Positions 3,813 through 28,375 of a DNA stretch of 64,000 bases are shown here, piece after piece; within the stretch, counting starts at the first letter, position 1; the number at the start of each line of letters is the position of its first letter. Origin of the DNA: an uncultured bacterium. GTDB lineage: Bacteria > Electryoneota > RPQS01 > CBDVBD01. The notes below the pieces were generated by a model, which was not told the DNA's origin, did no database searches, and saw nothing but the letters and a program-made list of their open reading frames with translations. A program made the translations under genes and the position numbers. The stretch covers positions 3,964-67,963 of the forward strand of contig CBDVBD010000001.1 of the NCBI GenBank assembly GCA_965372135.1, given 5' to 3'.

Positions 3813-5588
3813 ATGACAAAAACAATTTACAAGACTTTTTTAGACGCCGCTCACAGGTTTACCAACAATACAGCGCTGATGTACAAGAAGCAGGGTCGCT
3901 ATTCGGAGATTAAGTACTGCGAGCTTGTAGAATCGGTAGAAACTGTCGCTGCGAATCTCGTTGGGTTAGGTGTAAAAAAAGGCGACACGGTTGGTATCTT
4001 TTCCAACAATCGCCCGGAATGGGCGATTGCAGACTTGGCTTGCATGAAACTTGGTGCTGTGGTGGTTCCTATTTATCAGACTTTGCCGCCTGCTTGTGTA
4101 GAGTATGTAGTCAATGATTCCCATACCAGCCTAATCTTTGTAGAAAACAATGAACTTTTCACGGTAGTTGATGGAATTAGAAGCGAAGTTCCCGATCTTA
4201 AAACGGTGGTTATCTTTGATTCATCTGGGATTGATAGCCGAAAAGATTTCTTGAAATTTCGTGATTTGAATCGTGTAGATTCTCGTGAGAGCGTTCCGGA
4301 TGTTGCAGCATCAGGCGATGACGTGGCGACAATAGTCTATACTTCAGGGACTACCGGTGACCCAAAAGGTGTTGTCCTTACCAATAGGAACATCGTAACC
4401 AATGCATTTGCCACCATCAATCGTTTTAGGGTGATACATAAAGATATCATTCTATCCTATCTTCCCCTTTCGCATATGTTCGAGCGAACCTGCGGTTATT
4501 ACGTATTTCTCTTCGCCGGGGGATGCATTGCCTATGCCGAAAACCTATCGACCGTCGCCGATGATGTCAAAGAAATCCGACCTACCATTATTCTTGCCGT
4601 TCCAAGAGTTGTCGAGAAGGCTTATGAGAAAGTTGTAACAGAATTGAGACGAAGTCCTTATCTTAAACAAGCTCTTGTGACCTACGCGATAAAGTGTCTT
4701 AATACTTATGCCAATCTTAGTCATAAAAAAATGAAAATTTCAATTGGATTAAGAGTGAAATGCGCAATTTTTAATGCATTCGTATCACCTAAATTCAGAA
4801 AACTGGGTGGTGGCAGGCTCAGAATTATAGCCACTGGAGGCGCACCTCTTAACAGAAAAATTGCCAAAGCTTTCTATATTTTTGGACTGAATATCGTCGA
4901 AGGATATGGTCTTACCGAAACCGCCCCAATTGTATGCTGCAATTCCGTAAAAGACAATAGGCTCGGAACCGTGGGGAAACCCCTTGAAGAGATTGAAGTC
5001 AAGATCGGTGATGGCGATGAAATCCTCATCAGAGGTCCGAATGTAATGAAGGAATATTTTAGCAAACCCGAGGATACTAAAAAGGTTATTGAAAGTAATG
5101 GCTGGTTCCACACCGGTGATCGGGGAAGGTTTGATGAATCCGGACATCTAATTATCACTGGCAGAATCAAAGAGATTCTTGTTTCCTCATATGGGAAAAA
5201 GATCCCATCAGCTCCTATTGAAGCCCAAATAGCAGGCAGTGAATATATTTCCCAGGTTGTTCTCTGTGGCGATAATAGGAAATGCGTTGGAGCATTGGTT
5301 GTACCGAATAGAGAGCAGATACAAAAACATGCAAAGGAGGGAAGTATTCATTCTAATAGTTATTCCGATCTGCTTGAAACTGACGGAATAAAAGCACTGA
5401 TAAAAGGTGTGATTGAAAAGTCAACAGAAGATCTTCCATCCTATGAGCAAATCAAGGTTTTCACCGTTATTCCTGAGGAATTCACAGTGACTAATGGTAT
5501 GTTAACCCCAACAATAAAACTAAGAAGAAACAAGATATTAGAGAAATATCGTAAAGAGATAGATGCGATGTATGCACCATCAGAATGA
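3813..5588 (+). CDS. AMP-dependent synthetase/ligase (long-chain fatty acyl-CoA ligase-like)
   Basis: AMP-binding signature YTSGTTGDPKGV, GYGLTET motif and a C-terminal small domain. 591 aa. Confidence 0.85.
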   Translation: MTKTIYKTFLDAAHRFTNNTALMYKKQGRYSEIKYCELVESVETVAANLVGLGVKKGDTVGIFSNNRPEWAIADLACMKLGAVVVPIYQTLPPACVEYVVNDSHTSLIFVENNELFTVVDGIRSEVPDLKTVVIFDSSGIDSRKDFLKFRDLNRVDSRESVPDVAASGDDVATIVYTSGTTGDPKGVVLTNRNIVTNAFATINRFRVIHKDIILSYLPLSHMFERTCGYYVFLFAGGCIAYAENLSTVADDVKEIRPTIILAVPRVVEKAYEKVVTELRRSPYLKQALVTYAIKCLNTYANLSHKKMKISIGLRVKCAIFNAFVSPKFRKLGGGRLRIIATGGAPLNRKIAKAFYIFGLNIVEGYGLTETAPIVCCNSVKDNRLGTVGKPLEEIEVKIGDGDEILIRGPNVMKEYFSKPEDTKKVIESNGWFHTGDRGRFDESGHLIITGRIKEILVSSYGKKIPSAPIEAQIAGSEYISQVVLCGDNRKCVGALVVPNREQIQKHAKEGSIHSNSYSDLLETDGIKALIKGVIEKSTEDLPSYEQIKVFTVIPEEFTVTNGMLTPTIKLRRNKILEKYRKEIDAMYAPSE

Positions 5589-7722: not shown

Positions 7723-9168
7723 GTGATCATGAGAAATGTAATTATCATCATTCTGGTCGCCTCCTTTGCAATCATGCTGCCGGTATCGACGGTTTCGGCT
7801 GAGATAGTGAGTAAAGACCAGGCTCTGACGGTGGCAACAAACTGGATTGCATTCATTCTTCAGGCGAAAGGAGATTGGGGCGGCGCCAAGACGGCGGAGG
7901 TAATAGAAATACAGGAATTCAAGCGTGGGGATCGGCTGCTGGGTTATTTTTGCCATGTGAATCCCAGAGGTCATATCGTGATTTCCCTGCGCAGGGAGCT
8001 GGCGCCGGTGAAAGCGTATTCAGCTACCTGTAATCTGGATCCTGGGATGGAGGAAGGGTTGGTTGACCTTATCAAAGACGGCATGGAACGAATCCTGGAT
8101 GGGATTATACAGCAGATAGGTCCCGTGGAAACGGTCCGAACCGAAGACATGGAAAGCATCCTTGAAATCGACTACCGTCAAACATGGTTAGCAATTGAAA
8201 ACGGAGTCGATATGAACTACCAGATGAGCGACACACTGCTTAATTCATCCTGGCATCAGGGTGACCCTTATAATCAACAGTGTCCAGCGCCACCGGGGGG
8301 TGATGACTGCACCGCTCCTCGCTGCTTGGTGGGGTGTGTCGCCACGGCTGGTGCCCAAATAATGCGGTACTGGAACTGGCCCCCCTATGATAATCATAAT
8401 CCACCCAATATTTATGATTGGCGGAACATGCCCGATCAACTTACAGGGTCGTCACCCCAGATAGAAATTGATGTTGTCGCCGATTTATGCCATAATATTG
8501 GGGTTGATGTCGGTATGAGTTACTGCGCTGGTGATGGTTGTCAATCAAGTGCACAAACTTACGATATGGAAGGTGTGTACGAAAATCTCTACCGTTATTC
8601 CCCTGATGGTGGAAGATCGAGCAGGAACCAAGTTAGCGCAGTGGAATGGTTTAACATGATAAAGAATCAACTTAATATGAATCGCCCCATCCATTACAGA
8701 GTTGAGGGACATTCAATTGTCTGTGACGGCTGGCAGGAGACCGGACCGGGACCCCTGCGGGAATACCATATGAATTATGGTTGGGGGGATGGCAATAATA
8801 CCTGGTGGACCCTGGGTGCATTGCTCTTCGGCGGTATCGATGAGGAATACATGCTGTACGGTATATTTCCCAACGTATCACTGGGAACTTCATTTTCCGG
8901 TACCTACGCCAGGAACGATATCCTTCCCTACCGTTATTTCGATCGGGATGCTTTGGGGACGACGGCAGTATTTGAAGCTGGTCAGAGGTTGCAGTTTCTC
9001 CCCCGTATCACTGTAACCTGCGCCCCCGGGGGTGGGAATTATGTCCGAATCCTAAGTGGGGCTTTTTCTTGGACCCGTCTATTTACAAGAGGAGATATCT
9101 CAAAAGGCATACGCCTTGCTGGAGGTGAAGTCAAGTTTCATCCTGGCGGCTCATTGAAGTTACATTAG
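7723..9168 (+). CDS. Peptidase C10 (streptopain/SpeB-like) family cysteine protease, secreted
   Basis: Signal peptide. Motif SWHQGDPYNQQCP...GCVATAGAQIMRYWNWP matches the C10 catalytic Cys region. Lies 10 nt after the upstream gene. Confidence 0.7.
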   Translation: MIMRNVIIIILVASFAIMLPVSTVSAEIVSKDQALTVATNWIAFILQAKGDWGGAKTAEVIEIQEFKRGDRLLGYFCHVNPRGHIVISLRRELAPVKAYSATCNLDPGMEEGLVDLIKDGMERILDGIIQQIGPVETVRTEDMESILEIDYRQTWLAIENGVDMNYQMSDTLLNSSWHQGDPYNQQCPAPPGGDDCTAPRCLVGCVATAGAQIMRYWNWPPYDNHNPPNIYDWRNMPDQLTGSSPQIEIDVVADLCHNIGVDVGMSYCAGDGCQSSAQTYDMEGVYENLYRYSPDGGRSSRNQVSAVEWFNMIKNQLNMNRPIHYRVEGHSIVCDGWQETGPGPLREYHMNYGWGDGNNTWWTLGALLFGGIDEEYMLYGIFPNVSLGTSFSGTYARNDILPYRYFDRDALGTTAVFEAGQRLQFLPRITVTCAPGGGNYVRILSGAFSWTRLFTRGDISKGIRLAGGEVKFHPGGSLKLH

Positions 9169-10685: not shown

Positions 10686-12050
10686 ATGGGAATGATTATG
10701 AAGAAACCAAAAATTCTGTTAATTGATGATGACCCTCTGTTTCTGAAAACCACCCAGCAACAATTGGCGGAATTAGGCTATGACACTAATACTGCTCCGG
10801 ATGGAATCTCAGGTAACCGTGAGATTTCCGCTGATAATTATGCCTTAATTTTGCTGGACTTGCGCCTTCCCGACACCGATGGATTGACTTTATTAAAGAC
10901 GTGGCAAGACAAAATGATTCCCTCACCGGTTATCATGATTTCCGGCGAAGGAACCATCCCCGAAGCGGTCAAAGCCATGAAACATGGTGCGCTGGATTTC
11001 TTGGTGAAACCGGTAGATATCGATCTGTTAGAGGTGGTAGTGAAGCGTACGTTGTCTTCTCAAAAATTGGTGAAAGAGAACCTTAGGTTAAAGCAGTTGG
11101 TTCGTCCGGACAAAGCTGTTTTCCTGGGTGATAGTGATGTGGTGAAAGAGTTACTCGATATCGCTGACAAAGTGGCAGATAGCGATCATCCCATATTGCT
11201 TGAAGGCGAAACCGGAACCGGGAAACAGGTTCTGGCGCACTATATTTTACAACATTCCAACCGAATCAATGAACCGTTCGTGCAAGTGAATTGTGCAGCC
11301 ATTACCCCAACCCTGTTCGAATCAGAGCTGTTTGGACATGAAAAAGGCGCATTCACCAGCGCTCATGTCCGAAAAATCGGCAAATTGGAGCTGGTGGGTA
11401 AAGGGACTCTTTTTTTGGACGAAATTGGTGAGCTGCCGCCCGAATGTCAGGCGAAATTGTTAACTGCAGTTGAAAACAGAACCTTCGAACGGGTAGGGGG
11501 GACGTCTGTCCTCTATTTTGAAGGCAGGATCATCGCCGCCACCAATCGGAACCTGGAAGATGAAGTAACCAACGGAAATTTCAGGAAAGACCTGTTCTAC
11601 CGGCTGAACACCTTTCGGCTAAATTTACCTCCTTTGAGGGAACATATCGAGGATATACCCATATATATCAACCACACTTTAGACCAATGCGGGCGGAAAT
11701 ACGGTAGTACTTTCGATTCACCGGAACCGGACGTGCTGGAGCAGCTAAAGAAATATCATTGGCACGGTAATGTCCGTGAAGTCATCCATCATGTTGAGCG
11801 TATCGCGCTGTTTTCCGACAGCAAAAAAATTCCCAAACGCCTCTGGCTGACTTTACCTTCGCTGGTGCAAGACCCATCCACTGATGAATATGAAACCAAC
11901 CTGCAAACCGCCATAGATTCCTTCAAAGAGCAGCACATATTGAAAATACTGGCAAATTGCGGTGAGAATCAGACCGAAGCGGCAAAACGCTTAGGCATTG
12001 GTCGCACTTACCTAAATCGATTATTATCATCATATAAAGATCATAAGTGA
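10686..12050 (+). CDS. Sigma-54-dependent response regulator (NtrC family: REC + AAA+ + HTH)
   Basis: REC domain (LLIDDD..., D54-like LLDLRLPD). Sigma-54 interaction domain with Walker A GETGTGKQ and motif ESELFGHEKGAFT. C-terminal HTH. The true start may be the Met at 10692 or 10698. Confidence 0.9.
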   Translation: MGMIMKKPKILLIDDDPLFLKTTQQQLAELGYDTNTAPDGISGNREISADNYALILLDLRLPDTDGLTLLKTWQDKMIPSPVIMISGEGTIPEAVKAMKHGALDFLVKPVDIDLLEVVVKRTLSSQKLVKENLRLKQLVRPDKAVFLGDSDVVKELLDIADKVADSDHPILLEGETGTGKQVLAHYILQHSNRINEPFVQVNCAAITPTLFESELFGHEKGAFTSAHVRKIGKLELVGKGTLFLDEIGELPPECQAKLLTAVENRTFERVGGTSVLYFEGRIIAATNRNLEDEVTNGNFRKDLFYRLNTFRLNLPPLREHIEDIPIYINHTLDQCGRKYGSTFDSPEPDVLEQLKKYHWHGNVREVIHHVERIALFSDSKKIPKRLWLTLPSLVQDPSTDEYETNLQTAIDSFKEQHILKILANCGENQTEAAKRLGIGRTYLNRLLSSYKDHK

Positions 12051-14506
12051 GCGCTATTCCCATCAAATATCAACGTTCCATTGCGGTCATCTGCTTTATC
12101 TGTATTGGATTGATTGGCACCGTCAACGTATCCCGTCGGATGCATTTTGGAATCAATGTCGACCAGATCGACGGACACACATTCATTAGTTCAATCGAAC
12201 CGGGAAGTCACCCTGAAATTGCTGGGTTACAGGTTGGTGATGAGCTATTGGCAGTGGACGGTAAAATCGTTCAGAACAAAGCGGTTGCCAGATGGATTCT
12301 AATAGGTGTAGAATCCAGGTCACCGTCTGTTTTTCTTGTCCAGCGAGGTGACGAACGATTCAACATCACACTCCCGCCGGAATCACAATTCGATATCGGA
12401 TTTCTGATTCTAAATGCGCTGTTGGGTATCACTTTTATCATCGTCGGCACCGTAGTGTGGTGGAACGGTTTTTCGGATGCAACAGTCCGATCTTTCTTTC
12501 GGTTGAACTGTTTTGCCGGAGCCGCTATCCTTCTATTCTCACATGAAAACACTCTGCATCCATTATTGCTGCACCATGCATATTCCTTCGCCTGGTTATT
12601 TACCTATTGCATGATACCATCGGCACTGTTGGAATTCATAATCAGATTTTCAAATTATTTTGAACAACCACGCCGTCACTCGACCACCGTCATCATCCCA
12701 TATTTACCTCCCATCGCGACATTCTTAACCCTAAGTGTTTTCTATCACTACGCTTACAATTCTTTTAGTCCGCACTGGATTACCCGCTATGAAACATTAT
12801 TTAATATAGGTTTCGGCGGGATTCTGTTAATCTACTTCACCGGCAGTATCTTATTATTGCTGCGAAACTATCTCAAACCGTCGAATCAGGTGGAAAAAGA
12901 CCGCATTCGCTGGCTGCTCATTTGCACATTCCTCGGGCTGGCGCCATTTTTCTTACTCTATAAAGTACCCGCGCTTTTCGGCTTAAATCCCTTTATTCCC
13001 CTTTGGACGGCATTTACACTGATGTTAATCGTCCCCATCGGTTGGGGGATGGCGGTGGCATCGTTCCGGATGTTGAAATTGGAATGGGTGCTGTCCCGGA
13101 CCATCGTCTATGCAATTTCCGCCGCCCTGGTTCTATATTTAATGTTAACGGCAGCGTCAAGCAGCATCGGATATGTTCAATACAAAGATACCACCTCCTT
13201 GATCGTTTTGTCGGTGCTCGGAATTGTGACGATATCCTTAGCAGTCTCAGGATTAATCGGATATGTTCGCAAGTTTATCGACCGGATTTACTACCACGAC
13301 TGGTACCGGTACGAAAAAGCGCTTCACGATCTTGGGGTGGAGCTATCCGGCTCCATCACCGAAAAAGCTATCGTTGAAATCCTTACCGAACGTTTTCCTT
13401 CAATATTGAAAATCACAAAAGCGACACTTCTAATCAAAAGCGATGACGGCAGCTTTCTGCTGCCCCATCAAACCACAGAACCAGGTAAAGGGAGGTTGGA
13501 GACAATTCAAAAATTACAAAAAGACTTTGCGGATATTACTAATTTCCCAAAAGATAGTCGTCTCGAACTGTCATCCTCCGATATAGGCGAACTTGGATAC
13601 CAGTATGTGTTGTACCTGGTGCATACCAGCGACATCATTGGCATCTTATTGCTGAGCAAAAAACTCTCAGGTGCACCCTTCAGCATTCGCGATCATCAAT
13701 TACTGGAGACTATGTCGAGTTATGCCGGCACCGCTATTGCCAATTTGGGTCTCACCCGCAAGTTGCTTGATACCGAGAAACGCGGATTGGCCGTGGACAT
13801 GGCGGGCGGGATAGCTCATGAAATCAACAATGCCCTGTCGCCCTTAATGGGACAAGCCCAACTAATTGAACGTTCTCTGTCACGAAGCCCTGAATCCGAA
13901 GGACAACGGGAAATGACTCAAAGAACTAATATAATCGTCGATATGTGTAATCGTATTAAGCGAATCGCTCTGAACTTAGGAAAAATTTCAGAACCCCTCC
14001 ACCTTGAGAAAACCTCGCTGTCTTTGAATGATGTCGTGGAAGAAATCCTGCAGATAATGTCCGAAACTGCCGGTCGCATTAAGCGTTACAAACTAAATGA
14101 TCCCCACGCCAAATTCCAGCTTTTCAAAAATTTGGATAAAAATCTGCCCTCAATAACAGCCGACCATCAGCAGTTAAACCAAGTATTTATGAATCTCATC
14201 CTAAATGCTTCAGATGCCATGGAGCCGCAAGGGCAGGGTACCCTAACAGTTAGAACCCAATTTGCGCAGGAACAGAATTCCGTGGTGGGATTTGTCGAGG
14301 ACACCGGTCCCGGAATTCCACACCATTTGAAGGACAAAATTCTCCAACCCTATTTTACCACCAAAGAAGAGGGCAAAGGAACCGGACTGGGATTATCCAT
14401 CGTCCGCTCCATAATCGAAGCCCACGGCGGTCAATTAAAAATCCACTCCACCGAAGGTCACGGCACCCGCATAGAATTCACCCTCCCCATCAGCAAGTCT
14501 GACTAA
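12047..14506 (+). CDS. Sensor histidine kinase with N-terminal PDZ-like domain and multi-TM sensor region
   Basis: PDZ-like GLQVGDELLAVDG. At least 8 predicted TM helices. HisKA H-box HEINNALSPL. HATPase_c G-boxes DTGPGI and GTGLGLSIV. Overlaps the RR gene by 4 nt. Confidence 0.85.
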   Translation: MSAIPIKYQRSIAVICFICIGLIGTVNVSRRMHFGINVDQIDGHTFISSIEPGSHPEIAGLQVGDELLAVDGKIVQNKAVARWILIGVESRSPSVFLVQRGDERFNITLPPESQFDIGFLILNALLGITFIIVGTVVWWNGFSDATVRSFFRLNCFAGAAILLFSHENTLHPLLLHHAYSFAWLFTYCMIPSALLEFIIRFSNYFEQPRRHSTTVIIPYLPPIATFLTLSVFYHYAYNSFSPHWITRYETLFNIGFGGILLIYFTGSILLLLRNYLKPSNQVEKDRIRWLLICTFLGLAPFFLLYKVPALFGLNPFIPLWTAFTLMLIVPIGWGMAVASFRMLKLEWVLSRTIVYAISAALVLYLMLTAASSSIGYVQYKDTTSLIVLSVLGIVTISLAVSGLIGYVRKFIDRIYYHDWYRYEKALHDLGVELSGSITEKAIVEILTERFPSILKITKATLLIKSDDGSFLLPHQTTEPGKGRLETIQKLQKDFADITNFPKDSRLELSSSDIGELGYQYVLYLVHTSDIIGILLLSKKLSGAPFSIRDHQLLETMSSYAGTAIANLGLTRKLLDTEKRGLAVDMAGGIAHEINNALSPLMGQAQLIERSLSRSPESEGQREMTQRTNIIVDMCNRIKRIALNLGKISEPLHLEKTSLSLNDVVEEILQIMSETAGRIKRYKLNDPHAKFQLFKNLDKNLPSITADHQQLNQVFMNLILNASDAMEPQGQGTLTVRTQFAQEQNSVVGFVEDTGPGIPHHLKDKILQPYFTTKEEGKGTGLGLSIVRSIIEAHGGQLKIHSTEGHGTRIEFTLPISKSD

Positions 14507-14651: not shown

Positions 14652-14667
14652 TGGCATGGCTATTGTA
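14652..14667 (+). promoter_or_regulatory. Sigma-54-like -24/-12 element TGGCATG-N4-TTGT (GC to GT at -12)
   Basis: GG-N10-G(T) spacing correct. Lies about 50 nt upstream of the ATG at 14716. Shares TGGCATGGCT with the element at 16969. Confidence 0.35.
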
Positions 14668-14715
14668 TTTAGATGGTGCAGAACTTCACTGAACACCTAA
14701 TTGGAGGAAATTAGA

Positions 14716-15198
14716 ATGTACCATCAAAACAAGATTCGCCCCTCAATCTTTAAGGGTTTTTGTTTTCTGAATCATTCCTTGCGGAAAAGCATTTTTTGGA
14801 ATACAATGATCTGTGTTCTCTGCGTTCTAATATTTGCTTCCATTGGACTTACTCAGATGGACTATGCCTCTCTGTCAAGTGATGATATGGTCGGATCGTA
14901 TGGGCAACCAAGTGAAGACGACAACCCACCTGCTGCTCCGTCATCCACCAAGAGATTTCGTATTTCTTTGAGCTGGGCTTTGATACAGGCAGAACCCAGT
15001 GATGGTTTGATTCACACATTCTCATCATCTGAATCTGGTGGATCCAATGGTGGTTTTCTCAGCGCGCTGCTCCATATCAATCAAGGTAAACCGCTTGCAT
15101 CGGCTTTTGGAATCAATTGTTGCATCACCGACGGTCTCGGTTTAGAACTAACGGTGCGCATCGTTGCCAATGATGGGGTGAGTGGCGCAAGCAGCTAA
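14716..15198 (+). CDS. Hypothetical membrane-anchored protein
   Basis: ATG at 14716 preceded by GGAGGA. One N-terminal TM (MICVLCVLIFASIGL). No recognisable domain. Confidence 0.4.
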   Translation: MYHQNKIRPSIFKGFCFLNHSLRKSIFWNTMICVLCVLIFASIGLTQMDYASLSSDDMVGSYGQPSEDDNPPAAPSSTKRFRISLSWALIQAEPSDGLIHTFSSSESGGSNGGFLSALLHINQGKPLASAFGINCCITDGLGLELTVRIVANDGVSGASS

Positions 15199-15261
15199 TC
15201 CCATCCGGGCGGTGATGAGAACAACACACATCAACCACTTTAGCTGGAGAAGGGAGTCATC

Positions 15262-15813
15262 ATGAAAACCCTATCATCTTACCGAGCTGCAATTGTAATT
15301 GGATTGTCGGTGGCAATCCTTCCGGTTGGGCTTTCAGCGCAGCCTCGGTCACCGGAAAATGGAACCACTTATGTTCGATAAAATTGTAGTGGACCCCGAC
15401 TGGGTTTTACCTATGTGCCGGGAGATAACGAAGTCTGGCGGAAATTGGATGACAAAAACATGGGTCGCGTGTTTACTCAGTTTGGTTGGCAATTTGAATA
15501 TGTAGTGGTTCCCAAAGGTAGAGGGCCATCTTACGCCATCGAATTTCTTCCCCTTATCGCGGGTGTTGAATATGGAAGGTTCATTCCAAGTGGAACGCTA
15601 ACGATGGGCATCCGTGCTGCTGGAGGCTTTGAGTTTGCAGTAGGACCAACCGTTTTACCATGGAAAGCCGCGCTGTCAATTCAAACTGGTACCAGTATAC
15701 ATTTCGACGAAACAAACATCCCGGTGCGATTGATTTACACACATAATCCCGATGGCAGCATTATTTCATTATTGGTCGGCTATGCCATCGGTAAAGCGAA
15801 GTCGGAATCGTAG
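15262..15813 (+). pseudogene. Signal-peptide / outer-membrane beta-barrel-like ORF interrupted by one in-frame TAA (15379-15381)
   Basis: ATG at 15262 encodes a signal peptide (MKTLSSYRAAIVIGLSVAILPVGLSAQP). The same frame continues after the TAA into a 145-aa beta-strand-alternating sequence ending ...GYAIGKAKSES. RBS GGAGAAGGGAG upstream. Confidence 0.4.
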
Positions 15814-15905
15814 CATCCTTCAGCCCAATTCCTTTAGTTCAAACCATGCTTTGCATTAATCTGTTACTATTTGGCTGAAACGCGGAATTCGGTTTCATAA
15901 TAATT

Positions 15906-16775
15906 TTGTATTGCAATAAGGTGTTCACGTCTTTGGAGATTTCACCGGTATTATTGGAAAAAGAATCCAGACTTTTGAGGCAAATGATGGACGCTGGAAC
16001 AACATTCGCGGTTAATGAGATGGATCGATATGAAGCACAGCCTAATATTCATAAATGGCTGTTTATTTTCGGACTGTGCTTCGCTGTCTGGCATATCATC
16101 CCGGTGTTCCTGGGTTGGGAAATCAAGGGTAAGTTTACAATCGGCGACCTGGTAGATCTATCCACACCGTTCGTTCTACTCGGACTTGTGCTAAAATTGT
16201 ATTTCATATTACAGCGACAGCGAAGAGAAACAGAGGGATGGGAAAGAGTCTCCATTTTTGGTCAACTTCTACTAATTTTCGGCGCCATTGTCTTCGTCCA
16301 GGGACACGGTATCCATCTCGCCAGCAACGCCATTTATCGATACTTAGTCGGAAACCCAACCTCGCCTCTGTCTTCACTAACCTATTTCTTTGATGAGATC
16401 CAAAGCCATTTCTTCTGGGATTCGGGATTATTGCTGATCGCGTTCGGACTGATTCTGCTTGACTATTGTTCGGATTCCCGATCAGAACCAATATCGGCAC
16501 CATCTAAACGTTGGATTTTCTGCGGTGCCTTATTATATGGATTCACCCATTTCTGCAATGGCGTGGAAGGACAAACCGCTGTTTTGACTTTCCCGGCAGC
16601 AGTTCTTATCCCAGTTCTCCTTGTCCTAATATCCTGGGTAATGCATCTGCGATTGCTGCTTAGTCCTGTTATCCTCTTCTATTTTACCGCATTCCTCACT
16701 GCCGACATCCTCTTCATTTTCTGGGGCATACTGCACAAAGGATTCCCCCAATTCAGTGAATTGGGCTGGTTCTAA
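15906..16775 (+). CDS. Integral membrane protein (about 8 TM), unknown function
   Basis: Multiple hydrophobic helices. No recognisable motif. Confidence 0.5.
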   Translation: MYCNKVFTSLEISPVLLEKESRLLRQMMDAGTTFAVNEMDRYEAQPNIHKWLFIFGLCFAVWHIIPVFLGWEIKGKFTIGDLVDLSTPFVLLGLVLKLYFILQRQRRETEGWERVSIFGQLLLIFGAIVFVQGHGIHLASNAIYRYLVGNPTSPLSSLTYFFDEIQSHFFWDSGLLLIAFGLILLDYCSDSRSEPISAPSKRWIFCGALLYGFTHFCNGVEGQTAVLTFPAAVLIPVLLVLISWVMHLRLLLSPVILFYFTAFLTADILFIFWGILHKGFPQFSELGWF

Positions 16776-16968: not shown

Positions 16969-16984
16969 TGGCATGGCTTTTGAG
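16969..16984 (+). promoter_or_regulatory. Sigma-54-like -24/-12 element TGGCATG-N4-TTGA
   Basis: Same TGGCATGGCT core and spacing as the element at 14652. Lies about 55 nt upstream of the ATG at 17039. Confidence 0.3.
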
Positions 16985-17038: not shown

Positions 17039-18379
17039 ATGAAAAATCGTAATAGACTGGTATTGCTAATTGCATTAATGGTCGCAGCTGTGCTTAGTGG
17101 TTGCGATTCACCTATGGGACCTGACGAACCAAAACAACCCAAGAGTACCGGGCATTCTCCTCCGTTACCTGGAAATCTGCTAATTAATGTTGAATCGGAT
17201 GAGAGTGAATTCGATAGCGTCCTGTGCTTTGTACCCTCATATTCATTAGAGTTAATTAAAATGCTGCATGAAGGAGACTGCTATACTGTCAATATACAAC
17301 TGGATTCTGGAAGTTATAACATAATTTCCGAGGGATACCGTGAAGGACATGCAACTTATTCAGGATTTGGTACAGGACAGGTATCATCAAATCAAACAAC
17401 AACCATCGATATTTCATTGTCCCAAAAGGCATATGAGGTTGTAGGTTCCACTGATTTATTTGGGAGAGCAGAGAAAGTTGTTGTTGTAGGTAACTACGCT
17501 TATGTGCAGGTTAACAGTGCGTATCCTACTTATGATCCTGGTCTTCAAATAATTGATATCTCCAATCCTGACAATCCTACTTCTGTTGGATTCTACCGGT
17601 CAACATATTCGTTTCGAGATATTGCAGTTGCTGGAGGCTATGCCTATGCAGTGTGTGGAGGCTTAAGAGTGATCGATGTCTCCAACCCTTCTGGACCCAT
17701 AGAAGTTGGATGTCTTGTATCCACCATAATTGCTTTTGCCGCAAGAAATATCGAAATTAACGGGAATTACGCTTATGTTTCGGGATACATCAATTTTTAT
17801 GGATGTGGCATGTATCTTTGGGTGATCGATATTTCAAATCCCACTAATCCTGTGCAAGTTGGATTTAACTACACGATGGGAACGCTCTGTAGTGTCATTG
17901 AGGTCTCAGATCAATTCGCTTATTTAGCATGTGGGCAAAATGGTTTAATGGTTATGGATGTATCCGATCCAACAAATCCCAATGAAGTAGCTCAATGTGG
18001 ATTTTCCTATGCTGCATGGAAGATATCCGTCTCCGACGACTACATCTATGTCGCTGGAGATTCCCCTAATATAACGATTGCGGATATATCTACACCTTCA
18101 GATCCCGTAGAAGTTGGTTGTTGTTATTATATCTGGTATCCAAATGAAATTGCGGTATCCCAGGATTTCGGTTATGCTGTTACCGATTACAGTTTGATTG
18201 AAGTTAAGGCTACAGATCCTTCCAATCCAATTATTACAGGCTTATGCAGGCTCCCACAAGATACAAAGAGTATTGCCATTTCTGGTGATTACGCTTACGT
18301 AGCCTGTGATTCGAATGGATTGCAGACTGTTTACATTGGTGAGAAGCGACGGAAAAACGAAAATGTGGAGGAAGAGTAA
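17039..18379 (+). CDS. LVIVD-repeat beta-propeller lipoprotein
   Basis: Lipobox LSGCDSP. Six repeats of the (L/V)x(V/I)(I/M)D(I/V)S(N/D/T)P..P..VG pattern, e.g. LQIIDISNPDNP and LRVIDVSNPSGP. Real start likely ATG 17039 (RBS AAGAGG). The ORF track started at 17009. Confidence 0.75.
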   Translation: MKNRNRLVLLIALMVAAVLSGCDSPMGPDEPKQPKSTGHSPPLPGNLLINVESDESEFDSVLCFVPSYSLELIKMLHEGDCYTVNIQLDSGSYNIISEGYREGHATYSGFGTGQVSSNQTTTIDISLSQKAYEVVGSTDLFGRAEKVVVVGNYAYVQVNSAYPTYDPGLQIIDISNPDNPTSVGFYRSTYSFRDIAVAGGYAYAVCGGLRVIDVSNPSGPIEVGCLVSTIIAFAARNIEINGNYAYVSGYINFYGCGMYLWVIDISNPTNPVQVGFNYTMGTLCSVIEVSDQFAYLACGQNGLMVMDVSDPTNPNEVAQCGFSYAAWKISVSDDYIYVAGDSPNITIADISTPSDPVEVGCCYYIWYPNEIAVSQDFGYAVTDYSLIEVKATDPSNPIITGLCRLPQDTKSIAISGDYAYVACDSNGLQTVYIGEKRRKNENVEEE

Positions 18380-18999
18380 TGAAAAAGCAAATGCATAATC
18401 AAAATGGAACGTTGGACCGATTCCTTGCCACCTTCAATCAATTTATCGGAAGTGGTGTCCTGATCGCCGTTGTCATTCTATCTGGTGCCACTGTTGTTTC
18501 AGCCGCACAGAAATCACAAATCAAAAAGATTCCTTGTGTAACCGTCGTCAGCAAAAACGGTGACCAGCACCCCGGTAGAGTGTTTGATGTTTCTGACACA
18601 TCACTAACACTGTGGTGCAGCGAAGAGCTGTATAGTGATCAGAATCGCAGCCAACATTCCAGGAATGTACACTACTCGGAAATCAGTCACATTATCATCG
18701 AGGAGAAAGGCAATACTGTATCTGGGGTGGTTATTGGAACGTTGCTTGGCGCAACTCTTGGATTGTTCAGTTCGCAGCTTGTACCGGTTACATGGACCAA
18801 TGTGAACTGGTCGCCGTTCGAAATGGCGGAAACCATGTTGGAAACCCCGATGGTTTTGATCTGTGCAGTCCTTGGTGGAGTCGCCGGTGCGTTGAATGGG
18901 ATCGACACAAAAGTTCAGATAAACGGCGATATCGAATCATTTCATAATATCGTACCAATTCTTCAAGAGATCAAAGTTAAAGAAGGAGAATCACCATGA
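18379..18999 (+). CDS. Secreted small protein: N-terminal KDG-type beta domain plus C-terminal glycine-zipper TM segments
   Basis: Start ATGA overlaps the upstream stop. Signal/anchor sequence. Motif VVSKNGDQHPGRVFDVSDTSLTLW. Gly-zipper segments GVVIGTLLGATLGLF and AVLGGVAGALNG. Confidence 0.5.
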   Translation: MKKQMHNQNGTLDRFLATFNQFIGSGVLIAVVILSGATVVSAAQKSQIKKIPCVTVVSKNGDQHPGRVFDVSDTSLTLWCSEELYSDQNRSQHSRNVHYSEISHIIIEEKGNTVSGVVIGTLLGATLGLFSSQLVPVTWTNVNWSPFEMAETMLETPMVLICAVLGGVAGALNGIDTKVQINGDIESFHNIVPILQEIKVKEGESP

Positions 19000-19868
19000 A
19001 GTCAACACAATATTTTTTGATTCTGATTTTACTCGTTTTATCCATCGCCTCCAATTTCGCTGTTGCACAGCAGGGCACAACCTCCCAAGATAAAGTATAC
19101 CAAATTGTGTTGAAAGACGGATCGAGGCTAATTGGGATGATTGAGGATGAGGATAACGATACCATCAGCCTAACAACCTTAATCGGCATTGAGATCAACA
19201 TCGAAAAGAATCAAATTGAGAAAATGAAGCTTCTTTCGGGTGTAGTAGTGGGTGGAAAATATCGGCGGTCTGACCCGAATTATACCAGGCTGTTCTTCGC
19301 CCCCACTGCGCGACCCCTGAAATCAGGGCAAGGGTACTTTTCCATCTATGAATTATTCCTTCCTTTTGTAGCCGTTGGCATTGGTGACGTACTCACATTA
19401 GCTGGAGGAATCTCCATATTTCCCGGAGCCCCACAACAAGTGTTTTATTTGGCGCCCAAGGTTACGCCAATCCATCTGAAGGGTATTGATATGGCAGCGG
19501 GTATTATGCACATTGGCTCAACTGGGGGAAATAGCGAAGGTATGGGCATAATCTATGGATTAGGTACATTTGGTTCAACTGCCAGTGCCTTTACGCTTGG
19601 CCTTGGGTGGGGATATGCTGGGAAAGAAACCGCCGACAAACCAATTGTCATGGTTGGGGGGGAACTGCAGGTATCCAATAGTTTTAAGTTGATCACCGAG
19701 AATTGGTTCCCGCCTGATTCGGAAGTTTCCCTCATCTCTTTTGGATTCAGGATGTTCGGTGATAACCTTGCTGCAGACCTGGGTCTCTGTAATCTGGCAG
19801 GCGCAGGAATGCGGGGATTTCCGTTTTTCCCCTGGGTTGGCTTTGTCTATAATTTCAATACAACATAA
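18996..19868 (+). CDS. Secreted protein: KDG-type N-domain plus beta-rich (barrel-like) C-terminal region
   Basis: 4-nt overlap with the upstream gene. Signal peptide. Motif IVLKDGSRLIGMIEDEDNDTISLTT. Ends ...VYNFNTT. Confidence 0.5.
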   Translation: MKSTQYFLILILLVLSIASNFAVAQQGTTSQDKVYQIVLKDGSRLIGMIEDEDNDTISLTTLIGIEINIEKNQIEKMKLLSGVVVGGKYRRSDPNYTRLFFAPTARPLKSGQGYFSIYELFLPFVAVGIGDVLTLAGGISIFPGAPQQVFYLAPKVTPIHLKGIDMAAGIMHIGSTGGNSEGMGIIYGLGTFGSTASAFTLGLGWGYAGKETADKPIVMVGGELQVSNSFKLITENWFPPDSEVSLISFGFRMFGDNLAADLGLCNLAGAGMRGFPFFPWVGFVYNFNTT

Positions 19869-19956
19869 TCATCAATTAGTGCTTGTAAGTAATTTCCTAT
19901 TTACACTAACACAAATCTTCAAGTACTATCGAACAAAAACACGTGAGGAGGAAAAA

Positions 19957-21222
19957 ATGAAGAAACGGAGTAATTTTTATTCAACCATGATCGCTTTGGT
20001 GCTGCTGTCAACTACCTGTTACTTTTCGGGTAGCGCCCAAGCCGGTCAATCACCGGAAGCACTGACCAGTGCAGCGCTCAAACCAGCCACCGTCGAAGTC
20101 GGAATGTCCAGAATATTCCACCTCCGAGATGGAAATGTCGTTGCCGGGACCATCACCGCAATCGAACACGATTCCATCGCGGTGATCGAAGCCCCGGATG
20201 GCACGCTACGCATTCCCACTTGGGAGATCCTCGAGGAGATGGTGGATCTGACAAAAAACGACAACACCCGCTTCGTGGGTCCGGTCCTTTCCGAGGACGA
20301 CTACTCGATTTCCATCAAGACCCCCTATGGCGTGGTTGTGGTACTGAAGCGCGACATCCAATCCATGGATCGCTATTACGGTGACAAAAAAGTGAGCTGG
20401 GAGGAAGAGAAGCAGCGGTTCTATCCCGCTGAAGAGCTTATCGACATCTTCCTGGATCCCACTGCCTTTCCACTGCAACCGCATACCATCTATCTGAGCG
20501 GTCTATCTCTGGGCTATGGGTTTACCGAAAATTTTATGCTGCGAACCCAGTTCGGGAACAACTTTGTGTACGACCTGAACCTGCACCCCATGTTCCGCAT
20601 CTTCCGCCGTACCACTGGAACCTCGGAGATCAGCTTAGCCGTCGGTGCCAGGCTATTCAGCCATCATAAAGTTAAACAGCAAGCCGAAAAGTACAGCCAA
20701 TGGATTATCGACACAGGTCTCGATAGTTCCTTGCACGAAAAAGGCGCTGTGCTCGTGGATAGTGTGCTGGAAGATCCCGATAAAAAGGAGTTCTACTGGG
20801 AATCTTATCTGGTCCTGAGCCGCCGCCAAAATCTTCCCAGCGGTCGCGGGAAATGGGGTTGGCATTTGGGTGTGCAAACCAACTCCATGGTGCACACCAG
20901 ACCGGAATTAAATCCCGAGTATGAATGGGACGATGAGTTTGAATTCCCCTACCGGATCTGGGCAGCCATGGACTATGACCTCACCAAAAAGCTGAAATTC
21001 CTCATCGAGGTCTTTGCCGATAACGGACACAAGTTTATCACTCTCGAGGAAACCGCCCGCAGCTATTTCGATTTCGATAACACACCGTTCTCCGTGGAAA
21101 CCCAAACCGGTGACTACCAACCGGTGGACCTCGATTTCGGGTTCATCTACACCATCACGGAAGCGTTTCGGCTCGGGTTACACTTCCAGTCTCCCTACTT
21201 GGAAATCTATTGGAAATGGTAG
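19957..21222 (+). CDS. Secreted protein: two KDG-type N-domains plus beta-barrel-like C-terminal region
   Basis: ATG at 19957 preceded by GAGGAGGAAAAA (the ORF track extended it to 19741). Signal peptide. Motifs FHLRDGNVVAGTITAIEHDSIAVIEAPDGTLRIP and ISIKTPYGVVVVLKRDIQSMDRY. Ends ...YWKW. Confidence 0.5.
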   Translation: MKKRSNFYSTMIALVLLSTTCYFSGSAQAGQSPEALTSAALKPATVEVGMSRIFHLRDGNVVAGTITAIEHDSIAVIEAPDGTLRIPTWEILEEMVDLTKNDNTRFVGPVLSEDDYSISIKTPYGVVVVLKRDIQSMDRYYGDKKVSWEEEKQRFYPAEELIDIFLDPTAFPLQPHTIYLSGLSLGYGFTENFMLRTQFGNNFVYDLNLHPMFRIFRRTTGTSEISLAVGARLFSHHKVKQQAEKYSQWIIDTGLDSSLHEKGAVLVDSVLEDPDKKEFYWESYLVLSRRQNLPSGRGKWGWHLGVQTNSMVHTRPELNPEYEWDDEFEFPYRIWAAMDYDLTKKLKFLIEVFADNGHKFITLEETARSYFDFDNTPFSVETQTGDYQPVDLDFGFIYTITEAFRLGLHFQSPYLEIYWKW

Positions 21223-21243
21223 AAAACATAAGGAGACACCATC

Positions 21244-21726
21244 ATGAAGAAAATCTCGATATTACTTACGTTTTGCATGCTGCTCCATCCCCTAATTGGT
21301 TTCACGCAGCAAACAAACGGAATCGACGACGGCGATGACCTATTCCAAGCCCGTTCCATTAAGATAAACCGAATGTCGGTGGAATGGAAACACGAACCCA
21401 TGGACCTGATTTTGCAAAATGGGATAAGTTATTCCGGCAAATTCATCGCACTGCAGAATAACATCTTTCGATTACAAAGTAATGGTCAGGTTAGAGAAGT
21501 CCCGTTGAAGGATGTGAAAACCATCGTCCTGAAACGAAAGCCCCAGGACCTGCTTTTGGTTGGGTTGTCTGCCGTAGGTTTAGCCGCGTTATTTGCTGGT
21601 GGAGCGTCATTGGGCTTTGACGCATCCGATCAAACAGTTGCCGGTGCTGCTGGGGTTGGTGCAGTGGTAGGTGTTGCAATCGGTTGGCGAGCATTCTACC
21701 AAAACATCGAAATCCCAACCAAGTGA
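21244..21726 (+). CDS. Secreted small protein: KDG-type domain plus C-terminal glycine-zipper
   Basis: RBS AAGGAGA. Signal peptide. Motif LILQNGISYSGKFIALQNNIFRLQSNGQVREVPLKDVKTIVL. Gly-zipper GAAGVGAVVGVAIGW. Confidence 0.5.
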   Translation: MKKISILLTFCMLLHPLIGFTQQTNGIDDGDDLFQARSIKINRMSVEWKHEPMDLILQNGISYSGKFIALQNNIFRLQSNGQVREVPLKDVKTIVLKRKPQDLLLVGLSAVGLAALFAGGASLGFDASDQTVAGAAGVGAVVGVAIGWRAFYQNIEIPTK

Positions 21727-25216: not shown

Positions 25217-26560
25217 TCAGAAACGTATCGTAAATACTGTGTTTACACCAAGTACTGAACTGACGTTCATGGTGGCGCCGTGCAATCGCATGATTTGTTT
25301 TGACAAGCTTAACCCGATACCGGAACCCTCGGTTTTAGTGGTGAAGAATGGGATAAAGATTTTGTCCAGGACTTCCGCTTTTATGCCGTGTCCGTTATCT
25401 TCCACCTGGATCACCGGACACCCCCGTCCGTCGGTCCTGGCAATCATTTTGATGGTCGGATTGGGAGCGTTTTCCAGGGCTTCTACGGAATTTTTACAGA
25501 GGTTGATCAATACCTGTTCGATCATGTTGGGATCAGCGGTCAGTTCCAATGTTTCCGGGTCCACCGATACCTGGAGATCTATGGATTTTTGCCGGATTTG
25601 ATCCCCCATCAGGTTTCTTATTCGATTGAATAATTCTTCAATCAGGAATACTTCGTATTTCGGTTTGGGAATCCGGGTTAGTTTTCGGTAATCCTCCACG
25701 AAATGCAAAAGTCCATTACTGCGTTTTTCGATGGTTTTTACTGCGTTAACGATGTCATTGACAGCTTCATCCTCAGGATTGAATTTATCGGTATCAGCTG
25801 ATAACATTAATTTTGTTGTGGAGGCTAAGGAAGAGATGGGTGCGATGGAATTCATGATTTCGTGCGTTAAGGTACGGATAAGTGTCTGCCAGGCTTCCAT
25901 TTCCTTTTCTTCCAACTCCCGCTGGATGTTGGTCAACGACACCAAGGTAAAGGATTGCTGATGAGAGACGAATCCAGTGGCGTAAATCGACAATTGCAGC
26001 GATCGCTCTTCGTCCTGCAAGTTGATTTGTTCTTTCTCGCCGGGTTGGATATTTATAAGGGTGTCTGCCAGTTCCCGGCTGATGGGGGATAGCAGTTTGA
26101 TATTACGAAGGTTAGGGATTTTTAGCAGGCGTTTGGCGGCATTGTTGATCAACGTAACTTCCCCGTTCACGTCGTATGATATCAGACCCACGCCGACATG
26201 TTGGATAATGGTTTGAATGAAGCGATGATGCTCTTCCTTTTCCATCCGGATTCGCTTGAAGTTGTTCAAGACTTCGCCGAATGCATTGTGCAGGTCTTTG
26301 AATGTGGAACCTTTGGAAGTGCTGGCAAAGGGTTGCGAAAAGTCGGAATATTTTATTGATAACAGGAATCGTGTGACGTCGCGGTTGGTTTTTTCCACGT
26401 AGTGGAATAGTGCAAACACCTGATAAATAATGAGTACACCGACAATGAATACCGTGGCATACAGTTGTGTTTGGAATAGAAGATAGAGAAACAGGAATAT
26501 GGTGGCACCCAACAAAATCAGCCGCAAGGTGCAGTTTAGGCGGAACCGTTTAAAGATCAT
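25217..26560 (-). CDS. Sensor histidine kinase (2 TM, HisKA + HATPase_c)
   Basis: Two N-terminal TM helices. H-box LTHEIMNSIAPI. G-boxes EDNGHGI and GSGIGLSLSKQI. Overlaps the RR gene by 11 nt. Confidence 0.85.
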   Translation of the reverse strand: MIFKRFRLNCTLRLILLGATIFLFLYLLFQTQLYATVFIVGVLIIYQVFALFHYVEKTNRDVTRFLLSIKYSDFSQPFASTSKGSTFKDLHNAFGEVLNNFKRIRMEKEEHHRFIQTIIQHVGVGLISYDVNGEVTLINNAAKRLLKIPNLRNIKLLSPISRELADTLINIQPGEKEQINLQDEERSLQLSIYATGFVSHQQSFTLVSLTNIQRELEEKEMEAWQTLIRTLTHEIMNSIAPISSLASTTKLMLSADTDKFNPEDEAVNDIVNAVKTIEKRSNGLLHFVEDYRKLTRIPKPKYEVFLIEELFNRIRNLMGDQIRQKSIDLQVSVDPETLELTADPNMIEQVLINLCKNSVEALENAPNPTIKMIARTDGRGCPVIQVEDNGHGIKAEVLDKIFIPFFTTKTEGSGIGLSLSKQIMRLHGATMNVSSVLGVNTVFTIRF

Positions 26561-27926
26561 GCTTCTCCATCCTTCGGTACAATGAGGCTCGAGTGATGCC
26601 TAATTCCTTTGCGGCATAAGTCACGTTCCCTTCGTACTTGGTCAAGGCTTTTCTGATGATGGTTTTCTCCACGAAATCCAAGTCGAAATTATCGAATATC
26701 AAACCTTCCAGGTTTGCCACGGCAGACGGAAACAGAAAATCCGACGGTTGCAGCGTTTCGGTCTCCGCCAGGATAACGGCTCGTTCGATGGCATGCCGGA
26801 GTTCACGGATATTTCCGGGCCAATGATAACGCTGAAGCTTTTTCATGGTGGCGGAATTGATACTGTCTATGGGCTTTTTATATTTCTTGGAAAAAATCGA
26901 TACGAAGTGATCCACTAACAGCGGGATATCGTCCACACGTTTACGGAGTGGAGGTATTTGGATTTCCACGGTGTTGATGCGATAGAGCAGGTCCTGGCGA
27001 AATTCATTGCCCTGCACCATGTCATGGATATGCAAGTTGGTGGCGCATATCAAGCGAATATCGATGTCGATGGGTGCATTCGATCCCAGCCGGATTACCT
27101 GGCGGTTTTCCAATACCCGCAGCAGCTTCGCCTGCAGGGCTATCGGTACGTTTGCGATTTCGTCCAAGAAGATGGTGCCGCCGGAAGCTACTTCGAATCG
27201 ACCCGGTCGGTTTTCCTTGGCATCGGTGAAGGCACCTTTCATGTAACCAAAGAGTTCACTTTCGAACAACGTATCGGAAATCGCACCCACATCCACACTG
27301 ATAAAAACTTCATCCGCGCGTTCCGAGCCGCGGTGCAGAGCGCGTGCCACCAATTCTTTTCCCGTGCCGTTTTCCCCCAAAATCAACACATCGGCATCGG
27401 TATCCGCCACCTTTCGAATTGCGTTGAACACCTCTTGTATTGCGGAACTGACTCCGATCATTTCGTGGAAACGCTGATCGATATCGGCACTTAATTGCTT
27501 TTGGCGCGATCGGAATTTATCCACCTCACGCTGCGACTGACGCAGGTTCATTGCGGAGGATAGTGTAGCTAACAGCTTTTCGTTCTGCCAGGGTTTCAGC
27601 ACAAAGTCGGTGGCACCTTGTTTGATGGCTTTAACCGCCATTTCCACATCACCGAAAGCGGTAATCATAATCACCACCGCCGAGGGGTCGATTTCCTGAA
27701 TCTTTTCCAACCAGTGAAACCCTTCCAATCCGCTGGTTACATCCTCGGTAAAATTCATGTCCAGCAGGATAACATCGTAGGTCTCATTCTGTAGCAACGA
27801 TGGGATATGGTCGGGATTTTTTTCCGTGTGTACCACTGAGATATGCTGCTTGAGGAACATCTGTGCAGCAAGGAGGATATCCTCATTATCATCGACGATC
27901 AGGATTCTCCCGGAAACCTTAGCCAT
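26550..27926 (-). CDS. Sigma-54-dependent response regulator (NtrC family)
   Basis: REC (RILIVDDNEDI...LLDMNF), AAA+ sigma-54 domain (GENGTGKE, ESELFGYMKGAFT) and HTH. The ORF track starts at 27950 (MIDKKVDLMAK...). The Met at 27926 is preferred because it has AAAAAGG upstream and is the typical REC start. Confidence 0.9.
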   Translation of the reverse strand: MAKVSGRILIVDDNEDILLAAQMFLKQHISVVHTEKNPDHIPSLLQNETYDVILLDMNFTEDVTSGLEGFHWLEKIQEIDPSAVVIMITAFGDVEMAVKAIKQGATDFVLKPWQNEKLLATLSSAMNLRQSQREVDKFRSRQKQLSADIDQRFHEMIGVSSAIQEVFNAIRKVADTDADVLILGENGTGKELVARALHRGSERADEVFISVDVGAISDTLFESELFGYMKGAFTDAKENRPGRFEVASGGTIFLDEIANVPIALQAKLLRVLENRQVIRLGSNAPIDIDIRLICATNLHIHDMVQGNEFRQDLLYRINTVEIQIPPLRKRVDDIPLLVDHFVSIFSKKYKKPIDSINSATMKKLQRYHWPGNIRELRHAIERAVILAETETLQPSDFLFPSAVANLEGLIFDNFDLDFVEKTIIRKALTKYEGNVTYAAKELGITRASLYRRMEKHDL

Positions 27927-27962
27927 GAGATCAACCTTTTTATCAATCATCTGTTGTCTCGT

Positions 27963-28360: not shown

Positions 28361-28375
28361 TGGCACCAATCTTGC
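28361..28375 (+). promoter_or_regulatory. Sigma-54 (RpoN) promoter TGGCAC-N5-TTGC
   Basis: Exact GG-N10-GC consensus (TTGGCACCAATCTTGCC). Predicted TSS near 28387. The first gene's ATG is at 28423. Confidence 0.6.

Follow-up and report, generated by a model that had tools for sequence, protein, structure and literature searches.

A small β-barrel domain shared by predicted outer-membrane barrels and glycine-zipper proteins in an uncharacterised envelope gene cluster of an Electryoneota bacterium

What holds together five adjacent genes for secreted proteins in an uncultured member of the Electryoneota? The genes, here G1 to G5, lie within a 64,000-nucleotide (nt) stretch of contig CBDVBD010000001.1 (assembly GCA_965372135.1, positions 3,964 to 67,963 of the forward strand), which we call the window. 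A preliminary description had seen an LVIVD-repeat lipoprotein followed by four proteins with a common KDG-type motif, and had taken the whole for an uncharacterised modular envelope system. Our analysis confirms a real but uncharacterised set of cell-envelope genes made up of parts of familiar types (outer-membrane barrels, glycine zippers, an SH3-like small barrel, an LVIVD propeller and a sigma-54 two-component system); as far as our searches show, the recurring pair of a barrel and a zipper protein with a common periplasmic small barrel is undescribed. The cluster (17039–21726) consists of five tightly packed, co-directional genes, read from the listing and translation of its open reading frames (ORFs):

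17039–18379, + strand: G1, LVIVD β-propeller lipoprotein
18379–18999, + strand: G2, signal sequence, small β-barrel (nt 18535–18708), two glycine-zipper helices (nt 18709–18894), short C-terminal tail
18996–19868, + strand: G3, signal peptide, small β-barrel (nt 19086–19244), conserved linker, 12-strand-type barrel (nt 19293–19865)
19957–21222, + strand: G4, signal peptide, two small β-barrels (nt 20101–20235 and 20236–20385), barrel (nt 20449–21219), C-terminus ...YWKW
21244–21726, + strand: G5, signal peptide, conserved N-terminal segment, small β-barrel (nt 21388–21543), KRKP, two Gly-rich hydrophobic helices (nt 21544–21699)

A small domain common to four neighbouring proteins

The core pattern of the motif, [KRQ][DN]G..h.G.h, has four matches among the 525 six-frame ORFs of the window, and these are exactly G2, G3, G4 and G5 (shuffled control, mean 0.43 matches, maximum 3). 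Pairwise BLAST among the cluster proteins is weak, and we therefore built family profiles and ran hhalign on the family alignments of G2, G3, G4 and G5. G2 aligns with G5 (probability 92%, E 6.7e-7) and with G3 (77%, E 2e-5), and G3 with the second copy of the motif in G4 (90%, E 1.6e-6); lower values link G3 to the first copy in G4 (35%, E 4e-4), G3 to G5 (34%, E 4e-4) and G4 to G5 (32%, E 5e-4), with G2 and G4 at a probability of about 3%. The G3–G4 profile alignment extends over 94 columns, past the motif into a conserved linker ('…DPTAFPL…' against '…APTARPL…') and the first barrel strand. Hidden Markov models (HMMs) built with one family left out at a time and searched against all 525 ORFs gave G5 (E 6.8e-4), G4 (E 2.6e-3) and G3 (E 0.031) as the top match outside the training set, and the motif copies of these three proteins can be aligned with hardly a gap about an invariant glycine; the small domain of G2 carries an insertion of about 10 amino acids (aa). 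Because hhalign, the leave-one-out models, the core pattern and the near-gapless alignment agree, the observation that all four proteins behind the lipoprotein share the motif stands, the leave-one-out models speaking for G3 to G5. The similarity holds in profile comparison, with hhalign E values down to about 1e-6, yet G2 is missed by the pooled HMM.

AlphaFold2 models built from deep alignments reach a mean predicted local distance difference test (pLDDT) of 90.7 for G3 and 88.2 for G4, and each motif copy in them consists of five short strands, the fifth preceded by a short helix. DSSP assigns strands to G3 residues 34–39, 44–52, 56–61 and 66–70, a helix to 71–73 and a last strand to 74–80; in G4 this pattern occurs twice in tandem, one continuous strand joining both copies. 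This succession, with a short (3-10) helix ahead of the fifth strand, is the signature of SH3-like small β-barrels, and the models show the KDG motif as a predicted five-stranded SH3/Sm-like small β-barrel of about 50 aa. Searched against the PDB, the pooled motif profile returns only sub-threshold matches of SH3/Sm type (Rpp29, E 0.0016; the myosin N-terminal SH3, SmD1, designed SH3 barrels, the DUF903 chain 2k57 and Hfq). The weak Pfam matches are SH3/Sm-like as well (DUF903, RimP SH3, Hfq); the best, DUF903, spans model positions 2–48 of 49 and with 18 bits (cut-off 27) stays below its gathering threshold, and the LSM, Hfq_1, DUF150_C and BPL_C models score lower still, all under theirs. 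Among NCBIfam models, NF047433 (Lepto_7_Nterm, the N-terminal domain of LA_0442/LA_0875) is matched at E ≤ 0.1 by 21 of 38 motif copies (lowest E 2.8e-6), its curated cut-off of 43 bits not being reached (G5 16.7 bits, G3 17.2 bits). The C-terminal half of TIGR02603 is matched by 15 of the 38 copies, and four further Leptospira models (NF047503, NF047432, NF047624, NF047528) also appear, in each case below the curated cut-off. The motif thus matches no curated family at threshold, and with it no well-known domain of established function. The same holds for the full proteins: Pfam and NCBIfam searches give no characterised or curated family at threshold for G2 to G5 and, as first described, no enzyme domain in any cluster protein. 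Homologues of G2–G5 are all annotated 'hypothetical', and our literature search on these families found nothing.

Predicted barrels, zipper hairpins and the G4–G5 gene pair

Beyond the small domains, the C-terminal regions of G3 and G4 are modelled as about 12 long strands (pLDDT above 90) forming a closed antiparallel barrel of 12-strand type, and every significant Foldseek match of either model in the PDB is an outer-membrane barrel. For G3 these are the porins KdgM, NanC and GalP (target TM-score 0.58–0.74, E 4.5e-5 to 3.5e-4), followed by FapF, intimin/invasin and PorV; for G4 they are FapF, FadL, OprB and KdgM, with OmpM1 a weak match at rank 44. The regions that had been called barrel-like are borne out in this way, and the models show G3 and G4 as predicted outer-membrane β-barrel proteins with one or two small barrels fused N-terminally. 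Sequence identity in the G3–porin structural alignments is 7–10%, with KdgM at 7–8%, no cluster protein matches the KdgM porin family PF06178 in Pfam at E ≤ 1, and a sequence search of G4 against the PDB gives no match. The most conserved segment of G3 is the linker R.DPN.TRLFFAPTAR.L that precedes the first barrel strand (D93, N95, R98, T104 and R106 invariant), and this linker is common to G3 and G4. Both families are large: at least 379 homologues of G3 at 90% clustering, with no Pfam family (an exact-sequence look-up of the window G3 returned no record), and at least 186 of G4, plus 80 species-level genome loci. Many G4 homologues, the window protein not among them, have a zinc ribbon (CxxC…CxxC) after the signal peptide; there it would be exported, which is unusual, and a cytoplasmic ribbon was rejected on account of that position. 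A separate small protein with a zinc ribbon and a transmembrane (TM) segment is encoded just 5′ of G4 in loci L010 (9441–9971) and L011 (about 3970–4450).

G2 and G5 join the motif to predicted glycine-zipper TM segments instead, completing the two kinds of fusion that had been described. The G2 zipper has the form GxxxGxxxGxxxG (sequence GVVIGTLLGATLG) and the corresponding G5 segment reads GVGAVVGVAIG. Against the glycine-zipper families of Pfam G2 itself scores 16 bits (cut-offs 25–29); among 30 members of its family, 12 match PF13441 (Gly-zipper_YMGG; best E 3.6e-6), 10 match PF13488 and 6 match PF05433 (glycine zipper 2TM). An exhaustive HMMER search recovered 65 homologues of G2, all distant; G5 has 11 homologues. 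The metagenome collection contains no close relative of G2, Pfam finds no extra domains in the longer G2 homologues, and profiles of the two families searched against the PDB return nothing meaningful, SlyB not being matched. Signal peptides are visible on all of G2–G5, as noted earlier; in G2, G5 and their families they are of type I, cleaved at AQ-type sites and lacking a conserved lipobox. The hairpin helices have the hydrophobicity needed for a stop in the inner membrane (Kyte–Doolittle 1.5–2.1). In either family a basic segment (net +2.4 to +2.7) leads into helix 1, and the loop between the helices is acidic (about −1.9).

G1 lacks the KDG motif. It has a lipobox (LSGC), an N-terminal β domain and then the propeller, which matches Pfam LVIVD (PF08309) in six stretches at 166 bits (cut-off 20.2; E 9.2e-50), and its description as an LVIVD-repeat lipoprotein is sound. 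Our metagenome scan gave 12 LVIVD loci, none of them beside motif-bearing genes, and G1-like LVIVD proteins accompany G4–G5 in locus L012 only. Since LVIVD relatives are, with that sole exception, unlinked to motif genes, the suggestion that the propeller serves as a scaffold is left with next to no comparative backing.

The gene junctions are close. G1 and G2 overlap by 1 nt at a TAATG (18379, previously read as ATGA), G2 and G3 share the 4 nt of an ATGA, as was reported, and the gap between G4 and G5 is indeed 21 nt; an 88-nt spacer between G3 and G4 is absent from the preliminary description. The G4 frame is open from 19741, but a GGAGGA ribosome-binding site precedes the ATG at 19957. A terminator scan found no terminator-like site on the + strand within the cluster, with sigma-70 and terminator scans both at chance level. 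The overlaps argue for co-transcription, and the arrangement is best explained as a putative single transcription unit behind a sigma-54-type promoter, encoding envelope proteins only.

Among the loci compared, the five-gene arrangement occurs on this contig only; it is not conserved. A genome scan for G4 yielded 80 loci, in Calditrichota (including Caldithrix abyssi), Neomarinimicrobiota, Latescibacterota, Fidelibacterota, Krumholzibacteriia, Ca. Electryonea, Ca. Hatepunaea and metagenome-assembled genomes of Ignavibacteria/Bacteroidota. Of the 76 loci with room for a downstream gene, 49, spread over several phyla, have a G5 homologue directly 3′ of G4; in many of the others G4 is followed by a gene for a signal peptide, a KDG-type motif and a Gly-rich TM segment. 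Profiling across related genomes, proposed for the whole operon, recovers the G4–G5 pair; of the supposed modular envelope system, the uncharacterised secreted proteins with a small β domain in common stand, and the five-gene unit gives way to G4–G5. This pair is the conserved module, best explained as the probable functional core, or ancestral unit, of the cluster. That G2–G3 might be a conserved pair of the same kind was considered and rejected, G3 homologues elsewhere having no such neighbour: those with 52–57% identity (L001–L004, L007) are stand-alone genes among unrelated neighbours.

Two variants of the G4 loci deserve mention. Tandem G4 paralogues occur in L051, L052, L059, L064 and L073 (Ignavibacteria/Bacteroidota and Marinimicrobia), mostly with no adjoining G5 homologue detected. 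In L058, L062, L063, L067, L079, L083, L085 and L087 the product of the gene 3′ of the G4 homologue, a Marinimicrobia partner protein, has 'YDP(x)TGE(x)I' repeats N-terminal to its KDG-type domain; the window G5 shows no such repeats.

Sigma-54 elements and two-component genes

A sigma-54-like element had been noticed upstream of G1. It has a second copy in the window, and both lie downstream of a two-component gene pair:

10686–12050, + strand: NtrC-type response regulator with receiver, sigma-54 AAA+ activator and Fis-type helix–turn–helix (Pfam Sigma54_activat 1.8e-62, Response_reg 2.7e-23)
12047–14506, + strand: histidine kinase with a first TM segment (TM1), PDZ (aa 33–108), multi-TM block, GAF, HisKA and HATPase (Pfam PDZ 2.4e-6, HATPase_c 2.5e-25)
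14652–14666, + strand: first sigma-54-type −24/−12 element, TGGCATGGCTATTGT, preceding three small envelope ORFs (14701–16775)
16969–16983, + strand: second sigma-54-type −24/−12 element, TGGCATGGCTTTTGA, 56 nt 5′ of the G1 start codon

The second element has counterparts in L009 (TGGCACGACATTTGA) and L005 (TGGCACAAATATTGA), and L011 has an equivalent of the first just past its kinase gene (position 2019). Orthologues of both regulator and kinase (E 1e-144 to 1e-283) precede G4–G5 in L009, L022 and L023, and a G3 homologue in L005; in L011 the kinase orthologue stands alone before G4–G5, the regulator not being visible because the contig ends before its position. The pattern TGG[CT]A-N6-TTG falls between kinase and target in L005, L009, L011, L022 and L023, and twice in the window. 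It is present in 8 of the 9 G4 loci that have a sigma-54 regulator no more than 3.5 kb upstream and in 6 of the 73 that have none, where 5.3 are expected by chance; the −24 element (TGGCAC) and the spacing fit the sigma-54 consensus. By this cross-locus comparison, with counterparts in orthologous loci and an activator gene upstream, the remark on the sigma-54 element is well supported, and we treat the element as a predicted promoter. The adjacent NtrC-type regulator and PDZ kinase probably control the cluster, and the PDZ domain, between TM1 and TM2, would be periplasmic. A literature search found no PDZ-kinase/sigma-54 envelope system that bears on these families.

Further features of the window lie outside the five-gene cluster. 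Behind the first element, together with ORFs 14701–15198 and 15906–16775 (the latter with a clear orthologue in L011, E 5e-106), is a small outer-membrane-protein-like gene (15262–15813, + strand) that starts MKTLSSYRAAIVIGLSVAILPVGLSAQ… and has an in-frame TAA near 15383 (…TTYVR*NCSGPRLGFTYVPG…); either a pseudogene or an error of assembly could account for this stop. A second, divergent sigma-54 two-component pair (25220–27950, − strand; PAS-HATPase kinase and NtrC-type regulator) is faced by a canonical TGGCACCAATCTTGC element (28361–28375, + strand) that heads a cluster of HlyD, ATP-binding cassette (ABC) ATPase and MacB/FtsX genes. An unusual local expansion follows, in which more than ten paralogous ORFs, each about 800 aa long, form a tandem array (30568–61112, + strand) with genes for ABC ATPases, an M28 peptidase and a DUF4249 protein in between; the three array ORFs tested (30568–33015, 38662–41031 and 58698–61109) are double MacB_PCD/FtsX permeases. 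On the 5′ side of the first two-component genes lies a homologue of Peptidase_C10, a streptopain-like cysteine protease (7723–9168, + strand; 2.7e-35).

A tentative model, its rivals and known systems

Our best guess is that the cluster encodes a regulated module of outer-membrane barrels and zipper partners. The N-terminal SH3/Sm-like small barrels, one in G3 and two in G4, would project into the periplasm, and in G2 and G5 the same domain is followed by a zipper hairpin that would serve as anchor in a membrane. Small β-barrels often oligomerise through their edge strands (bioRxiv 10.1101/140376), and the common small barrel could act, much like the shared binding or assembly module suggested earlier, as a periplasmic protein–protein contact module that docks the zipper protein onto its barrel partner by edge-strand pairing. 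G4–G5 would then be the ancestral pair, G2–G3 a second pair of that kind assembled in this genome, and the G1 propeller an addition recruited in this lineage, with the kinase tuning the amount of the outer-membrane module upon an envelope signal. To the docking arrangement and this history of the pairs we would give somewhat less than an even chance.

Several observations weigh against this model. Homologues of G3 elsewhere have no motif-bearing neighbours, which implies that such barrels need no zipper partner. G2 was not recovered by the leave-one-family-out pooled HMM among the 525 window ORFs; it is tied weakly to the other three families and is, for that reason, the weakest and most divergent member. 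The charges flanking the hairpins are opposite to what the positive-inside rule predicts for an inner-membrane hairpin after an exported domain, despite the hydrophobicity of the helices. At the putative promoters the −12 element departs from the canonical TTGC, with TTGA or TTGT in its place; it varies by lineage, TTGA/TTGT in Calditrichota-type loci and TTGC in Marinimicrobia loci. Finally, about 70 of the 80 G4 loci have no adjacent regulator, and the regulatory link is therefore lineage-specific.

The alternative that survives best, though unlikely, makes G3 and G4 regulated small porins or substrate channels of the KdgM/NanC-like 12-strand kind, in which the small barrel or the linker would be a gate, G2 and G5 accessories and the kinase a substrate sensor. 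It draws on the KdgM, NanC and GalP matches that head the G3 structural search (target TM-score 0.58–0.74) and on the linker before the first barrel strand, the most conserved segment and common to both proteins. Any 12-strand barrel would score so, however, at 7–10% identity and with no Pfam KdgM match, and the loci compared show no consistent linkage of G3 or G4 homologues to genes of catabolism or transport; a glycoside hydrolase family 38 (GH38) α-mannosidase gene lies downstream of G5 in convergent orientation and is not kept in related loci.

Rather less probable, in our judgement, are tethers between outer membrane and cell wall, in which the SH3-like domains of G3 and G4 would bind peptidoglycan in an OmpA- or OmpM-type role and G2 and G5 would do likewise from their own membrane. 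Bacterial SH3b domains do bind peptidoglycan; the order of a small periplasmic domain and then a porin-like barrel, the SH3-fold hints for that domain and OmpM1 among the weak G4 matches all suit this idea. It meets no significant similarity to SH3b, SLH, OmpA_C or LysM families in Pfam or NCBIfam, dedicated two-component control would be unusual for a structural tether, and the conservation of the zipper partner gene is left unexplained.

We give little credence to a trans-envelope sensor, in which G4 in the outer and G5 in the inner membrane would relay a signal to the PDZ kinase through small-barrel contacts, in the style of FecA–FecR or RcsF–IgaA, the operon being both sensor and target. 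In several lineages two-component genes do adjoin G4–G5 or G3, the Leptospira anti-sigma factor family NF047528 has, by a sub-threshold match, the small domain at its periplasmic end, and the hydrophobicity of the G5 helices suits the inner membrane; against this, G5 has almost no cytoplasmic portion, its flanking charges speak against a normal inner-membrane topology and most G4 loci lack the adjacent regulator. Scarcely credible is a set of chance neighbours, unrelated envelope genes whose motif is a common β-hairpin pattern of separate origins: weak BLAST, the missed G2 and a gene order found on this contig only would allow it, but within the window the motif is confined to these four proteins, hhalign reaches E of about 1e-6, leave-one-out models rank G3, G4 and G5 first, the G4–G5 pairing is conserved and overlapping genes point to co-transcription.

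A bold and quite improbable reading makes G4–G5 an undescribed outer-membrane stress module of FCB-type (Fibrobacteres–Chlorobi–Bacteroidetes) bacteria, a barrel and a SlyB-like zipper that would be locked by matching SH3-like domains in the periplasm and induced when the periplasmic PDZ domain of the kinase senses exposed C-termini of unassembled outer-membrane proteins. Its logic would be DegS-like, wired to sigma-54 instead of sigma-E.

Envelope biology beyond the Proteobacteria is poorly mapped. The results define a small-barrel module captured by no curated family, two abundant families (G3 and G4) without Pfam model or annotation, and a conserved gene pair for barrel and zipper protein that in some lineages comes with a PDZ-kinase/sigma-54 switch. 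Should G4 and G5 bind each other, an outer-membrane barrel would be coupled to a helical membrane partner in a new manner; with regulator, kinase, G4 and G5 in this arrangement in its genome (locus L022), Caldithrix abyssi would then offer a tractable target.

Several known systems resemble parts of the cluster. The G3 barrel superposes on the 12-stranded porins KdgM, NanC and GalP and is of similar size (about 190 aa), but those porins have no periplasmic N-terminal domain and show 7–10% identity, Pfam gives no match, and no genes for sugar-acid catabolism lie near the cluster. OmpM (an SLH-porin) and the inverse autotransporters (LysM-barrel) also place a periplasmic N-terminal domain before an outer-membrane barrel, and intimin/invasin barrels and OmpM1 turn up among the G3 and G4 structural matches; their N-terminal domain is of another kind, whereas G3 and G4 have no passenger domain and no detectable peptidoglycan-binding family. 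For the small domain, the DUF903/YgdI–YgdR lipoproteins and SH3/Sm-like barrels share five short strands within about 50 aa; DUF903 proteins, unlike ours, are stand-alone lipoproteins and not modules fused to barrels or zippers, and the literature on DUF903, YgdI and YgdR yielded nothing that bears on these families. The Leptospira LA_0442/LA_0875 families and the C-terminal half of TIGR02603 have the sequence pattern of about 45 aa in common with the cluster; the LA_0442/LA_0875 proteins are likewise secreted envelope proteins, of about 280 aa and undescribed function, but belong to other phyla, with a similarity limited to the small domain and scores under the cut-offs.

For G2 and G5 the comparison is with the SlyB/PCP/YfgH lipoproteins (PF05433, PF13488, PF13441), to which G2-family members give sub-threshold to moderate Pfam matches, the window proteins staying under the cut-offs. 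Unlike these, G2 and G5 lack the lipobox cysteine and have the β domain before the hairpin, the reverse order, and SlyB offers no counterpart of a small domain common to a zipper protein and its partner barrel. The SlyB/PCP/YfgH lipoproteins belong to the outer membrane; G2 and G5 may lie in either membrane. What the two groups share is the combination of a zipper hairpin with a small β domain: the literature on SlyB and YfgH describes small secreted proteins with a two-helix glycine-zipper hairpin and a small periplasmic β domain, induced by two-component systems and acting beside outer-membrane barrels.

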